Shown piece after piece: positions 24,921 to 32,788 of a DNA stretch of 64,000 bases; the first letter of the stretch is position 1; the number at the start of each line of letters is the position of its first letter. The stretch lies in the NCBI GenBank assembly GCA_963848295.1, contig CAWKDB010000011.1:352001-416000 (forward strand). Reading direction: 5' to 3'. The position numbers were made by a program, and so were the translations under genes. The notes beneath the pieces were generated by a model that was not told the DNA's origin, did not search any database, and saw only the letters and a program-made list of their open reading frames with translations. The stretch comes from an uncultured delta proteobacterium. Its GTDB lineage: Bacteria; Myxococcota_A; Polyangia; Haliangiales; Haliangiaceae.

Positions 24921-25733
24921 ATGGCTGTCTCCCGCGCCACGTCTGAAAAGCTGTACCGCGAGTACATGACCTTCTTCGAGAAAGCGGAGAAGCATCGCCG
25001 GTGGAGCATCTTCGACGACATCCCGTGGGACAAGCTCGCGTCGTGCCCGAAGGATCCGGTGCTCGCGCTGTGCGCCGAGACGTTCTGCGGCGTCGAGATG
25101 TACCTGCCGGACTACGTCGGTCAGGGCATCAACGTGATGCGCGAGAACTTCGGCACGGCGTGGTTCATGGCGAACTGGGGCTACGAGGAGTCGAAGCACT
25201 CGCTCGCGCTGCGCGAATATCTCGTGCGCACCGGCCAGCGTACGACCGATCAGATCTACGACTACGAGCAGTCGATCCTGACGAAGAAGTGGTCGCTGCC
25301 GTTCCCGACCGCGCGCCAGATGTCGGCGTACGGGATGATCCAAGAGCTGACGACGTACGTGTTCTACAAGAAGCACAAGCAGCTCGCGCTCGACAAGGGC
25401 GACGACCTGCTCGCGGCGATCTACGGGCTCGTCTCGCGCGACGAGATCGCGCACTTCGGGTTCTACGCGTCGGTGTCGCGCGTGCTGCTCGAAGAGGACG
25501 CCGAGGGCATGAAGCGCGACCTCGCGCACGTGTTCCGCCACTTCACGATGCCCGCGTATGACCTGGTGCCGGACTACGGCGATCGCGTCGAGCTCATGCG
25601 CCAGGCCGGCATGGATCGCGGCGCGTTCGTGCGCGAGGTCTGGTTGCCCGTGTTGAAGGCGATCGGCCTGACCCGCGGCGAGCTCGTCGGTTACGATCGC
25701 CGCGATCCTGCGGTACCCGAAGCTCGCGCATGA
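24921..25733 (+). CDS. Soluble acyl-ACP desaturase family diiron protein
   Basis: VEMYLPDY, EESKH, QELTT, RDEIAH, FTMP. Adjacent to the ACP. Confidence 0.87.
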   Translation: MAVSRATSEKLYREYMTFFEKAEKHRRWSIFDDIPWDKLASCPKDPVLALCAETFCGVEMYLPDYVGQGINVMRENFGTAWFMANWGYEESKHSLALREYLVRTGQRTTDQIYDYEQSILTKKWSLPFPTARQMSAYGMIQELTTYVFYKKHKQLALDKGDDLLAAIYGLVSRDEIAHFGFYASVSRVLLEEDAEGMKRDLAHVFRHFTMPAYDLVPDYGDRVELMRQAGMDRGAFVREVWLPVLKAIGLTRGELVGYDRRDPAVPEARA

Positions 25734-28700
25734 CTCACGGCGCGCGCGACATCGCGATCGTCGGCATGGGCTGCCGGTTCCCGGAGGCCCGCGACGTCGG
25801 CGCCTACTGGCGCAACATCACGTCCGCGCGCGCGTGCTTCTCGGAGATTCCGGCGGAGCGCTGGAACCACGAGCTGTTCTACGACGCGAGCCCGCGCGCG
25901 ATCGACAAGACCTACGCGCGCAAGGTCGGGTTGCTCGACGACGTGAAGTCTTTTGCGGCGCTGCACTACGGCCTCGCGCCGCTCCGCGTCTCGGTCATGG
26001 ACCCGCAGCACCGGTTGCTGCTCGACGCCGTCCGGGTCGCGCTCGAGGACTCCGGCCGCGACGACAAGGCGCTCGCCGGCTCGCGCACCGGCGTGTTCGT
26101 CGGCGCGAGCGTGTCCGAATACAAGGATCTGATCACGAGCCGGCTGCGCGTGAAGGCGATGATGGCGGGCCAGTTCGGCCGCGCGCCGGGCCTGCCCGCC
26201 GAATTCGGCGACGCGATGGTCGAGGACGTCACGCCGCTGCGCGCATTCACGATCGCCGGCAACTTGCTCAACATGGCGGCCGCGACGGTCGCGCAGACGT
26301 TCGATCTGCGCGGGCCGGCCTTCACGATCGATGCGGCGTGTAGCTCGTCGCTCGTCGCGACCTACGACGCGATGCTGTATCTGCGCGCCGGGATCTGCGA
26401 CGTCGCGATCGCGGGCGGCGTGTACCTGAACCTGACGCCCGACAACCTCGTCGGGTTCTCGCGGATCGGCGCGATCTCGCCGAGCGACGCGTGCCGGCCG
26501 TTCGACGAGAAGGCCGACGGCTTCGTGCTCGGCGAGGGCGCGGGCGCGGTCGTGCTCAAGCGGCTCGACGACGCGCTGCGCGACGGCGATCGGATCTACG
26601 CGATCATCCGCGGGGCGGGGATCAACAACGACGGCCGGGGCGAAGGTCCGATGACGCCGCGCCCGGAAGGCCAGCGCGACGCGATCGAGCGCGCGCACGC
26701 CGAGGTCGACTTCACGCCCGACACGATCGGCTTCATCGAAGCGCACGGCACCGCGACCGCGGTCGGCGATGCGACCGAAGTCGGCGCGCTACGCGACTAC
26801 TTCACGAGCCACGCGCGAGGACCGCTCGATGTCGCGCTGACCTCGGTCAAGGCGAACATCGGCCACACGATGAGCGCGGCCGGGGTCGCGGGCCTGATCA
26901 AAGCCGCGCTGGTGCTGGATCGGGCTGTGATCCCCGCGCAGGCCGGGTTCGCGAAGCCACACGACAAGCTCCAGCTCGCGGGCACCGGCTTTCGCGTGCC
27001 GACCCAAACGGTGCCGTTCGCGACCAAGCCGGGCATGCCGCGCCGCGCCGCGGTCAGCTCGTTCGGCTTCGGCGGCACGAACTGCCACCTCGTGCTCGAG
27101 CAAGCGCCGCCCGGCGCGGCGACTCGGCGCGCGAGCGTCGCGGTCAGCCCGAACCTGGCGATCGTCCAGCCGCAGCCCTTCGTGATCTCCGCGGCGACGC
27201 CGGACTTGCTCGCGGCGCACCTCGGCGCGCTCGCCCTCGCGATCGACGATGCGGTGCCGCTCGCGGATCACGCGTACACGCTCGCGAGCCGCGGCTTGCA
27301 CGACGCGCGCGTCGGGTTCACGGCGCGCAGTCACGCCGAGCTACGCCAGCGGCTCGAGGCGGCAAAGCTCGTCGTATTAGGTGGCGACGTGACCCCCGGG
27401 ATCCGGTTCTCGCCGGCGCCGCTGCCCGAAGCCGCGCGCGCGATCGCGATGTTGTTCCCAGGCCAAGGCGCGCAAGCGCTCGGGATGGCGAAGGCTCTCT
27501 ACGATCGGTTCACCGGGTTTCGCGCGCGGCTCGATGCGCTCGCCGGGGCTCTCGACGACCTGCTGCCGCGCCCGCTGCTGTCGTATCTCTACCCGACGCG
27601 CACCATCGGCTTCGACGAAGCCGAGGCAACTCGCGAGCTGACCGCGACCGAGATCTGCCAGCCGGCGATGGCGGCGATCGGCCTCGCATTGGCCGGGTTC
27701 GCCGCCGAGCTCGGCGTGGTCCCGCGCGTCGTCGCCGGTCACAGCCTCGGCGAATTCGCGGCGCTCGCCGCCGCGGGCGTGTTGTCGGCGCGCGACACCG
27801 TGCGGTTCGTCGCCCAGCGCGGCCGGGTCATGGCCGAGCTCGCGATCGCGGATCGCGGCGCGATGTCGGCGATCGCCGCCGACCGCGCCTACGTCGCGAA
27901 GTACGTCGAAGGCCACGCCGGCGTCGTCATCGCGAACCTCAACCAGCCGAAGCAGACGGTGATCTCCGGCACGACCGATGCGGTGCTGGCAGCGTCGGCG
28001 CGGCTCGCGGCCGACGGCGCGAACGTCACCCGGCTCACCGTGTCGCATGCGTTTCATTCGCCGGTGATCGCCGACGCCGATCGCCCGATCGGTGACTTCA
28101 TCGCCGGCCTGGCCGTCGCGGATGCGACGTGCACGCCGATCTCGTGCATCGCGCCGGGCGTGTACCCGAGTGATGGCGACGGGGTCCGCGCGATCATGCG
28201 CCGCCACGCCGCCTCGCCGGTCGACTTCGTCGCCGGGATGCGCGCCGCGTCCGCTGCGGGCGCGACGTTATTCGTGCAGGCCGCCGCCGGCACCGCGCTC
28301 CTGTCGATGGCCCGCGCGACGCTGCGCGCGGCCGGCTCGCCGCCGTCGGCGACGATCGCGCTCGGTACGACCGACGGCGAAGACGACACCCACTTCCTCG
28401 GTGCGCTGTGCGAGCTCGCCGTGCTCGGCGTGCCGGTCAAGCTCGCGCCGTTGTTCGAGTCGCCGCGCGCGACGTGGCTGCCGCCGACGCCGTTGCCGAC
28501 CGAACCGTATTGGTGCGCGGTGAAGAGCGAGCGCGAGCGAGCGCCGCTACCCGCGCTCGGCACGGCCGCGGTGGCCGGACCCGACGCGGCGATGTTCGCG
28601 CAGCAAGCGCAGCTGCTCGCGCACCACGCGGAGCTGATGCGGCAACAGGCGCAGCTGTTCGCCGGCGGCGCAGCCGTATCCGCTGCCGCCGCCGTATCCG

Positions 28701-31700: not shown

Positions 31701-32788
31701 ATCGCGCGGCGATCGGCGCGGTCGAGCGCTACGGCACGTCCGTGTCGGCGTCGCGCATCGCGTCGGGCGAGAAGCCGCTCCACCGCGAGCTCGAGCTCGC
31801 GATCGCCAAGTTCCTCGGCTGCGAAGACTCGATCGTGATGGTCGGCGGCCACGCGACCAACGTCAGCGTGATCGGCAACATCGTCGGGCCGGGCGACCTC
31901 GTGCTGCACGACGCGCTCGCGCACGACAGCATCCTCGGCGGCATCAAGCTGTCGGGCGCGCGCCGCCGGCCGTTCCCGCACAACGATTGGCAGGCCCTCG
32001 ATCAAGTCCTCGGCTCGATGCGCGGCGCGTTTCGCCGCGTGCTGATCTGCATCGAGGGCGTCTACTCGATGGACGGCGACATCGCCGATCTGCCGAAGTT
32101 CATCGAGCTCAAGCGCAAGCACAAGACGCTGCTGCTCGTCGACGAAGCGCACTCGCTGGGCGTGCTCGGTCGGCGCGGCGCCGGCGTCGGCGAGCACTTC
32201 GACGTCGACCGCACGGGCGTCGACCTGTGGATGGGGACGCTGTCGAAGTCGCTCGCGAGCTGCGGCGGCTACATCGCCGGCACCCGCGCGGTCGTCGAGC
32301 TCCTCAAGTACACGAACCCCGGCTTCGTCTATTCGGTCGGGATCTCTCCGGCCAATGCCGCCGCCGCGCTCGGTGCCTTGCGCGAGCTCGAGCGTCGCCC
32401 CGAGCTGGTCGCGACCCTGCGCGCTCGGTCGCACTACTTCCTCGAGCTGTGCCGCGCGCGCGGCATCGATACCGGCCTCGCCGGCGGCAGTGCGGTCGTG
32501 CCCGCGATCGTCGGAGATTCGGTCCGCAGCATGCTGATCGGCGCGGCGCTCGGCGGCGCCGGGATCAACGTCCAGCCGATCATCTACCCGGCGGTCGAAG
32601 AGCACCTCGCGCGCCTCAGGTTCTTCATCACCGCGCGCCACACCGAGGCACAGCTCCGCTACACCGCCGATACGCTCGCCGCTGTCAACGCGACGTTTAA
32701 CCGCACCCCGGTGCGGCCAGTCGCTGCGACCCTGCCGCTGCCCTCAGTCGTACCGCAAGGAAGGCCCCATGCTACCGACCCATCATGA
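25730..32788 (+). CDS. Type I PKS (KS-AT-ACP-KR-DH) fused to a C-terminal alpha-oxoamine synthase (SPT/AONS-like PLP) domain
   Basis: [107 protein letters not shown]. Confidence 0.93.
28670..28848 (+). repeat. Imperfect tandem repeat (core GCCGCTGCCGTACCCGTC) encoding the (AAAVPV)n AT-ACP linker
   Basis: Directly visible in the DNA and the protein. Confidence 0.9.
31259..31480 (+). repeat. Hexamer tract (AACGGC/GTCGGC/ATCGGC) encoding a Gly-Asn/Val/Ile linker between DH and AOS
   Basis: Directly visible in the DNA and the protein. Confidence 0.9.

Follow-up and report, generated by a model that had tools for sequence, protein, structure and literature searches.

A candidate sphingoid-base megasynthase of uncultured myxobacteria-like microbes joins a polyketide synthase module to an alpha-oxoamine synthase

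The present analysis concerns a megasynthase, and the genes packed around it, in an uncultured delta proteobacterium of the family Haliangiaceae (Myxococcota_A). The gene lies on a stretch of 64,000 nucleotides, referred to as the window (GenBank assembly GCA_963848295.1, contig CAWKDB010000011.1, positions 352,001 to 416,000 of the forward strand). In one open reading frame (ORF) the protein joins a polyketide synthase (PKS) module, composed of ketosynthase (KS), acyltransferase (AT), acyl carrier protein (ACP), ketoreductase (KR) and dehydratase (DH) domains, to a C-terminal alpha-oxoamine synthase (AOS) domain (Table 1). A first-pass annotation, made from the DNA letters, had described this order with the ACP ahead of KR and DH, intact catalytic motifs and the lack of enoylreductase (ER) and thioesterase (TE) domains. 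Pfam confirms the order, the motifs occur at the places given (including DEAH at 2138 and TLSK at 2170 in the AOS domain), and no ER or TE family is found among the 11 Pfam families matched at E<=0.01. The AT is taken to be malonyl-type from its GHSLG and HAFH motifs, and third-position GC is of the coding type (0.80-0.96) over the entire length of the gene.

Conservation of the protein was explored by two homologue searches, one with residues 1500-2352 as query (984 proteins matched among 8000 candidates scored) and the other with a distant family member (1405 matches); the best 120 of each were listed, giving 240 homologues for residue counts. The complete KS-AT-ACP-KR-DH-AOS order is present in 108 of the best 120 of the 984, and the remaining 12 show the same order with the N-terminal domains or the AT undetected. 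A single ACP with its Ser, the KR Lys/Ser/Tyr and the AOS Asp and Lys are found in all 240 homologues, as is the Ser-Arg pair of serine palmitoyltransferases (SPTs), where Kbl has Val-Arg instead; the Asp typical of B-type KRs is kept in 238 and AOS His2141 in 239. The KS Cys occurs in 214 of 221 rows and the AT Ser in 227 of 230 (the other 7 and 3 are gaps), and neither the DH Asp (240 rows) nor the DH His (231 rows) is substituted in any aligned row. The Gly-Asn linker, in contrast, is variable, since the stretch from the DH match to the AOS match measures 46-118 residues among the 25 homologues displayed.

The fusion is not an assembly chimera across the Gly-Asn repeat, a possibility the first-pass annotation had raised: besides the order kept in homologues, the DH of an independently assembled close relative (G418) runs into the AOS in frame through a shorter, different linker. 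DNA identity to this relative is 94% over the AOS part and 86-91% over the DH part, and outside the linker 85 codons differ synonymously, 40 non-synonymously and 355 are identical. Contigs from four public DNA runs did not span the repeat and neither support nor refute the join. The protein is conserved across uncultured myxobacteria-like microbes. The closest homologues bear tool-given names such as Kofleriaceae, Myxococcaceae, Archangium and Deltaproteobacteria bins; no cultured strain occurs among the named records listed, all of them metagenome-assembled genomes, while most listed proteins are nameless. A search of the ESM Atlas returned only the family's own cluster.

The C-terminal domain had been annotated as an intact SPT or 8-amino-7-oxononanoate synthase, of which the AOS identity and its catalytic residues stand, whereas every curated SPT and BioF cut-off is missed. 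Against the NCBIfam models it scores 326 bits for BioF (TIGR00858; cut-off 426), 292 for the Cytophaga-Flavobacterium-Bacteroides (CFB) type of SPT (cut-off 640), and 269 and 203 for the other SPT models (cut-offs 500 and 670). Its structure model (pLDDT 91) has the AOS fold, with a Sphingobacterium SPT as top match (TM 0.92) by a narrow margin over others; fold searches, here and for the acyltransferase described below, confirm the AOS and E2/CAT folds only and do not reveal substrates. The AOS trees are quick trees in which the labels RkpG and WcbT were assigned from gene context. As the tree proposed in the first-pass annotation has it, the domain falls outside both BioF and canonical SPTs, in a clade (SH-aLRT 100 with 73 rows, 99-100 across quick trees) with Sinorhizobium RkpG, WcbT-like proteins, planctomycete FAAL-ACP-AOS fusions (FAAL, fatty acyl-AMP ligase) and Planktothrix and Streptomyces fusions. 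Approximately unbiased (AU) tests on a 21-row subset, with five PKS-fused AOS domains constrained to each group in turn, reject a grouping with BioF (p-AU 4.7e-5), which had been named as a refuting outcome, and with the canonical CFB and beta-proteobacterial Spt proteins (p-AU 1.7e-5). Members of the clade from beyond the family share 50-56% identity with the domain, those of Pseudomonas and Paraburkholderia 54-55%, whereas BioF, Kbl and the canonical SPTs share 30-36%.

On these trees the AOS is assigned to an RkpG/WcbT-like clade, and to neither BioF nor the canonical SPTs; PfSgaB is counted in this clade by SgaAB-like loci and a motif. PfSgaB of Pseudomonas fluorescens MYb115, a separate AOS partnered with a PKS, is described in passages of PMC12134224 as a serine-specific SPT in vitro, and the supplementary passage on sgaB, read by eye, encodes the same YGTSVSASR clade motif. 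The three other AOS genes of the window's genome group with Kbl or BioF, one BioF-like gene being separate from the megasynthase, and no other SPT candidate is found among them.

Several clade members deserve mention in their own right. A plasmid of the cultured Planktothrix agardhii (L198:5587-13185) carries, next to genes for a FAAL and glycosyltransferases, a KS-AT-DH-ER-KR-ACP-AOS fusion that would be a saturated counterpart of the megasynthase. On a plasmid of Streptomyces anthocyanicus, also a cultured host (L196:11356-16194), a KS-AT-ACP-AOS protein without KR and DH groups with the megasynthase family by both its KS and its AOS. Outside the family, the AOS has its nearest relatives in FAAL-ACP-AOS fusions of Planctomycetota (L020-L095), 5 of 42 with a YghO homologue in the flank, and three genomes of the window's genus encode RedL-like FAAL-ACP-KS-AT-ACP-AOS proteins (L013, L234, L235), two of them with a fused C-terminal short-chain dehydrogenase/reductase (SDR).

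The PKS part had been called PfaA/enediyne-like. This description holds for the domain order and the KR-DH region, whose top match is the PfaA model (TIGR02813; 175 bits over its C-terminal part), and colinear similarity to the enediyne PKS (PKSE) SgcE amounts to 34% over KS-AT and 27% over KR-DH. It fails for membership: the whole protein reaches 651 of the 1010 bits required by TIGR02813, there is one ACP in every homologue, and the KS forms its own clade. The KS phylogeny proposed earlier, a quick tree of 35 rows, supports a non-modular KS, as the family and the Streptomyces protein (SH-aLRT 91) lie outside the modular/RkpA/WcbR clade (100). It places them inside neither SgcE nor the Pfa-like KS: they branch at an open fork from which SgcE and a pair of Pfa-like KS domains from the same genome also arise. 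SgcE, on a long branch, was the one PKSE reference in this tree, and the genome's own Pfa-like domains stood in for PfaA. Enediyne PKSEs are defined by a C-terminal phosphopantetheinyl transferase (PPTase) and a thioesterase/E3-E5 cassette. No pfaB, pfaC or pfaD partner was found among window genes or recurring neighbours, and no enediyne cassette gene of the kind seen beside sgcE among the neighbours, the C-terminus of the megasynthase being an AOS. Because order and KR-DH likeness go together with a score below cut-off and a separate KS clade, the module is best described as working like the PfaA/PKSE type while belonging to neither family, and by its sequence the PKS part does not descend from the SgaA type. 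Another PKS pair encoded in the genome is Pfa-like (NMO/ER-KS-AT-ACP-KR and KS-AT-PPTase; L148, C2:133650-144731).

Table 1. Features of the megasynthase and of the genes around it (coordinates of the window).
Feature	Coordinates	Strand	Basis or remarks
Inositol monophosphatase family gene, divergent	19959..20792	-	domain annotation
Extended SDR (epimerase/3-beta-HSD family), candidate 3-keto reductase	20873..21844	+	weakly like E. coli CerR homologue (29% over 176 aa)
Fatty acyl-AMP ligase (FAAL)	21919..23757	+	genome's best match to E. coli AasR (34-35%); best family PRK09192, 511/600 bits
Short S-adenosylmethionine (SAM) methyltransferase of the cyclopropane-synthase family	23758..24651	+	Gln at His position of solved cyclopropane synthases
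Free-standing ACP	24664..24915	+	
Acyl-ACP desaturase-like di-iron protein	24921..25733	+	FA_desaturase_2; stop overlaps PKS start by 4 nt
PKS-AOS megasynthase, KS-AT-ACP-KR-DH-AOS	25730..32788	+	single ORF, 2352 aa, ATG to TGA; Pfam
KS domain (Cys204, His339, His379)	25745..26950	+	Pfam KS aa 6-407; motif alignment; KS tree
AT domain (GHSLG 670, HAFH 773)	27452..28408	+	Pfam AT aa 575-893; motifs
Ala/Val/Pro tandem-repeat linker, AT to ACP	28669..28849	+	low-complexity/repeat detection
Single ACP domain (Ser1078)	28871..29077	+	Pfam ACP aa 1048-1116
KR catalytic domain, B-type Asp1419, Lys1437/Ser1461/Tyr1474	29723..30247	+	Pfam KR aa 1332-1506; alignment
DH domain (His1581, Asp1756)	30422..31234	+	Pfam DH from aa 1565; alignment
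Gly-Asn tandem-repeat linker, differs between relatives	31254..31484	+	repeat detection; homologue comparison
AOS domain, RkpG/WcbT/SgaB-like clade (His2065, Asp2138, His2141, Lys2173)	31643..32674	+	Pfam aminotransferase I/II aa 1972-2315; trees; fold match
AurF-like di-iron oxygenase	32769..33638	+	overlaps PKS end by 20 nt
Stand-alone E2/CAT-fold acyltransferase, candidate N-acyltransferase	33712..34650	+	invariant DER replacing E2 DHR motif
GH3 acyl-amide synthetase	34722..36299	+	best NCBIfam match OlsH, 270/620 bits
Myo-inositol-1-phosphate synthase	36300..37571	+	genome's second copy
DegT-family sugar/cyclitol aminotransferase	37574..38854	+	
LPG_synthase_TM membrane protein (flippase-like)	38815..39822	+	true start probably later
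Aldehyde dehydrogenase	39405..41390	+	domain aa 152-603 of ORF; accompanies block in relatives

The genes from the extended SDR through the aldehyde dehydrogenase form a tightly packed run on one strand, with the inositol monophosphatase gene divergent upstream. About 18 kb upstream of this operon (5292-6958, minus strand) lies a second desaturase and AurF-like pair, 73% and 68% identical to the operon copies and without a PKS; the two di-iron genes evidently travel together. Downstream, at 45776-51137 (minus strand), a MBOAT gene followed by two GDSL-family genes is presumably an AlgI/AlgJ-like O-acylation unit.

Neighbours of the megasynthase were counted in relatives at 45 loci, one per genome, chosen for their upstream flank after exclusion of duplicates and short loci; flanks often measured 4-7 kb. 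A FAAL adjoins in 42 loci, a free ACP in 38 and a methyltransferase in 23, followed by homologues of YghO (bacterial ceramide synthase, bCerS) and the extended SDR (8 each), a desaturase of the window type and a short SDR (5 each), and a membrane desaturase and a PPTase (3 each). A minimal three-gene FAAL-ACP-PKS form occurs in many genomes, and neither an ER gene nor a thioesterase was found among the conserved neighbours. The roles of AasR, AcpR and Spt in the ceramide pathway are described in parts of PMC9386255, and those of bCerS and CerR in parts of 10.1101/2023.11.08.566215 and PMC11324152. In E. coli BL21 yghO is divergent from aasR-epi-acpR-spt, and the 8 megasynthase loci with a YghO homologue (30-35% identity, E 1e-46 to 1e-69) repeat this layout, the homologue being divergent from the FAAL and the megasynthase standing at the position of spt. 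A CerR-like SDR is present in 4 megasynthase loci (E about 1e-36). Two tandem YghO homologues lie upstream of the FAAL at L017, L019 and L022. No YghO/bCerS match was found in the window's genome, which is 85% complete.

The distribution of the fusion was surveyed in one draw of 301 genomes of the phylum, with thresholds set in this analysis and up to 5-6 candidates scored per genome. The AOS was matched at E<=1e-100 in 48 genomes; one of them (G265) owes its match to a stand-alone gene of the WcbT-like type next to a WcbR-like PKS, which leaves 47 carriers. Among these, the fusion is directly seen in 37 and deduced in 9 from the length of the frame (1500-2200 aa), and a contig end cuts the remaining one. 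A Bacteroidetes-type stand-alone SPT-like gene (E<=1e-112, none above the curated cut-off) is found in 74 of the 301 genomes and in none of the 47 carriers, and a second count yielded almost the same genomes. In family f27 (26 genomes) 17 have an SPT-like stand-alone gene of their own, 7 the fusion and none both; at 3 of the 4 loci fetched this stand-alone AOS adjoins YghO and a CerR-like gene. The f27 gene (L180-L182) is of a long-branch type that lies below the thresholds of both SPT models, and surveys based on such models may miss it. The non-overlap fits a replacement of SPT by the fusion, but it follows lineages; fusion and SPT genomes, being kin, are not independent counts, and Fisher tests, which overstate under these conditions, were not used as proof. 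Judging from gene content, the megasynthase likely replaces the usual first sphingolipid enzyme of its carriers.

Other genes of the operon represent a more local variant. Orthologues of the GH3 and DegT genes occur in 5 of 131 genomes of the window's own family, exactly the five carriers of the same genus, which probably reflects a single acquisition. An N-terminal region present in phospholipid cyclopropane synthases is missing from the methyltransferase, whose sequence covers the mycolic-acid methyltransferase model; together these two features suggest an ACP-bound substrate. In 30 of 30 cluster methyltransferases a Gln stands at the position occupied by His in the solved cyclopropane synthases shown; that His binds bicarbonate during cyclopropanation, so methyl branching would be the likelier outcome than cyclopropanation. 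The acyltransferase, with invariant DER and HHL motifs, matches the E2/CAT fold at a TM of about 0.56 with 15-20% identity and is a candidate N-acyltransferase. It occurs in 21 of 22 YghO-negative and 9 of 19 YghO-positive carriers (41 of the 47 searched), counts made within carriers of the fusion and to be read with the look-alikes in Bacillota and Spirochaetota in mind. At 4 of 20 SPT loci, all of family f46 and without a YghO match, it also stands next to the stand-alone SPT and a gene for a short SDR; this three-gene unit of acyltransferase, SPT and short SDR (L249:5386-8221, L250, L251, L252) is the cleanest test case for an alternative ceramide synthase. Since OlsH uses ATP to turn a free fatty acid into an amide (in passages of PMC12971839), the GH3 enzyme is, by analogy, a second candidate for N-acylation.

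Taken together, these observations allow a biosynthetic route to be proposed. The FAAL would load a fatty acid onto the free ACP, where, in the window's genus, the desaturase and the methyltransferase would probably act on it before extension, introducing a double bond and a methyl branch. The KS would then extend it once with malonyl-CoA. A B-type KR together with a DH gives a trans double bond, and these domains are expected to leave a 2E-enoyl-ACP, which the fused AOS, with no ER or TE present, may release by condensation with L-serine as a 3-keto-4E-sphingosine-type base. By the logic of the sequence a Cn starter would yield a Cn+4 base, acyl C2=C3 becoming C4=C5; a 9-methyl base like that of fungi would accordingly require a methyl group at C5 of the starter. 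The SDR would probably reduce the base, either the E2-fold acyltransferase or the GH3 enzyme would probably N-acylate it to a ceramide, and the lipid may also receive a head group of amino-inositol. The core of this scheme (extension, reduction, dehydration and pyridoxal phosphate-dependent release), which the first-pass annotation had put forward, is supported independently by gene neighbours, genome distribution and AOS clade. That a single-chain enzyme makes a serine-derived sphingoid base is considered likely, and whether this base is also the once-extended 4E form is close to a toss-up. The FAAL-primed, once-extended 2E-enoyl chain condensed with serine to a 3-keto-4E-sphingosine-type base is the best explanation overall, to which we give an even chance. 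Doubtful, though conceivable, is the joint picture of a widespread myxobacterial pathway that assembles eukaryote-like ceramides from unrelated parts, with a 4E bond formed by PKS dehydration without O2 ahead of any ceramide, a methyl branch of the fungal kind set on the ACP-bound starter by the His-to-Gln enzyme, an E2-fold enzyme as a third and so far undescribed class of ceramide synthase and, in the window's genus, an amino-inositol cap.

A number of observations weigh against this explanation. The AOS lies below all curated SPT cut-offs, as well as those of BioF and Kbl; PfSgaB was placed in its clade through SgaAB-like loci and one motif; and uncharacterised fusions, namely the KS-AT-ACP-AOS of Streptomyces, the ACP-AOS of Bacillus and RedL-like ones, belong to the clade as well. 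The exclusion between fusion and SPT is largely lineage-wide, the f27 stand-alone gene is only presumed to be an SPT, and 5 carriers have another AOS, 40-43% identical to the f27 gene, at loci without a YghO match. Carriers show no enrichment of YghO/bCerS, which is present in 23 of the 47 and in 124 of all 301 genomes; it is found in 0 of 6 genomes of the window's family in the draw, and several families have YghO but neither the fusion nor a stand-alone SPT-like gene at the thresholds used. Within the window's own family the AOS match is patchy, as for a secondary metabolite (13 of 131 genomes, three of these being RedL-like, FAAL-led proteins). Finally, the single extension is an assumption, and the iterative mode of PfSgaA counts against it.

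The last point favours a module that iterates without enoyl reduction, as in enediyne PKSs, so that the amino-ketone released by the AOS would be a conjugated diene or polyene (a sphingoid base of the polyene type or a pigment-like lipid). The domain order and colinear similarity of SgcE and the fit of KR-DH to the PfaA model argue in the same direction; however, a FAAL and a free ACP suited to a long starter adjoin the gene in most loci, no thioesterase is conserved among the neighbours, and the KS lies outside the SgcE/Pfa-like group, albeit at an open fork, which makes iteration unlikely in our estimate. It is quite unlikely that the module only lengthens the chain and that a trans ER encoded elsewhere removes the double bond to give saturated sphinganines. 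PfaA does rely on a separate ER, the second, Pfa-like PKS of the genome has an NMO/ER-type domain, and PfSgaAB yields C24-C28 sphinganines, but conserved neighbours include no ER and the fully reducing relatives of the AOS clade (RkpA, WcbR-like, the Planktothrix fusion) carry theirs in cis, whereas the megasynthase family has none.

There is a small chance that the cluster makes no membrane sphingolipid but a small molecule for secretion (a pyrrole of the RedL kind, or an antibiotic or signal resembling sphingofungin). The patchiness just described, the restriction of GH3 and DegT to one genus, a large membrane protein, whose size makes the MMPL type probable, in the block of two relatives and the MMPL transporter that adjoins the Streptomyces relative would suit it; the adjacency of bCerS and CerR-like genes in other lineages, the non-overlap with stand-alone SPT and the minimal FAAL-ACP-PKS form of many genomes would not. 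Use of alanine, glycine or cysteate by the AOS, leading to 1-deoxy bases or capnine-type sulfonolipids, appears very improbable: AOS specificity is not safely read from sequence and the top NCBIfam score is that of BioF, an alanine user, yet PfSgaB strongly prefers serine, all homologues keep the SPT Ser-Arg pair and the best structural match, by a small margin, is an SPT. That the AOS is the BioF of the biotin pathway, or the fusion an artefact, is hardly credible. Many homologues are labelled '8-amino-7-oxononanoate synthase' in databases and no public contig spanned the repeat, but the AU test, the separate BioF-like gene and the fusion kept in homologues and in the close relative all speak against it.

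The consequences reach beyond this locus. In surveys, a stand-alone spt gene is what marks a bacterium as a sphingolipid producer; by that measure about one in six of the genomes sampled from the phylum (47 of 301) would go unnoticed, or its genes be labelled as biotin or 'PKS' genes. Eukaryotes install the 4E bond by an oxygen-dependent desaturase; if the DH makes it here, the megasynthase would offer an oxygen-independent route to true sphingosine by a soluble single-protein catalyst. The cassette also provides candidates for two open steps, the methyl-branching of bacterial sphingoid bases and N-acylation in lineages without bCerS. Fungal sphingolipid C9-methyltransferases are cyclopropane-synthase-family enzymes that methylate the sphingoid chain, and a C9-methyl-C20-sphingosine was reportedly found in Sorangium cellulosum So ce56 (Keck, 2011, is said to be the source). 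This lipid was dropped as evidence for the megasynthase and serves as a precedent for the product class only, because no Sorangium or other cultured myxobacterial homologue is named among the 240 listed proteins (mostly nameless) or the 80 named loci, and a stand-alone SPT is listed for Sorangium in a part of PMC9386255.

PKS-derived bacterial sphingolipids, since 2025, and the FAAL-ACP-SPT arrangement are already known. No description of the fused, ER-less form with PfaA-type order was found in open PubMed Central and bioRxiv full texts, a scope that leaves subscription journals mostly outside, nor in the passages available from PMC11334938, PMC11765627, PMC3908369, PMC10667739 and PMC5234717. 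The genus table of PMC12134224 (6101 clusters) names no myxobacterial genus and has 3 unclassified Deltaproteobacteria.

Each of the known systems shares a part of the megasynthase. With PfaA and SgcE it has in common the KS-AT-ACP-KR-DH order, the lack of a cis ER and similarity over KS-AT and KR-DH, but it differs in its single ACP (PfaA has tandem ACPs), C-terminal AOS, separate KS clade and lack of a partner cassette. RedL of the prodiginine pathway, a glycine user, is likewise primed by a FAAL and frees its PKS chain through an oxoamine synthase fused at the C-terminus; it lacks KR and DH, which the megasynthase conserves, and here the FAAL is a separate protein. The RedL-like proteins of the same family differ also in their modular-clade KS. 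Fungal pairs such as SphA/SphB (sphingofungin) and Fum1/Fum8 (fumonisin) release a polyketide chain by an AOS as well, although they are eukaryotic and separate proteins; SphA is a distant match (E 2e-26). The AasR-AcpR-Spt system of Caulobacter and E. coli BL21, in the parts of PMC9386255 available, resembles the locus in the FAAL and dedicated ACP beside an AOS and in the divergent yghO layout of 8 loci, unlike which a whole PKS module stands here between ACP and AOS and the AOS falls outside the Spt clade. In PfSgaAB, RkpA/RkpG and WcbR/WcbT a type I PKS passes its acyl chain to an AOS of the shared clade, but RkpA/WcbR-type PKSs have the order KS-AT-DH-ER-KR-ACP, with an ER and a modular-clade KS. 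The closest proven system, which the first-pass annotation had not named, is PfSgaAB of P. fluorescens MYb115, in which the iterative PfSgaA and PfSgaB produce saturated C24-C28 sphinganines (Peters et al. 2025, PMC12134224, in part): its proven product is a serine-derived sphingoid base, the product predicted for the megasynthase from its genes. The two differ in that PfSgaAB consists of two genes and forms a saturated chain, whereas the megasynthase is one protein with FAAL/ACP starter supply, no ER and a PfaA-type order.

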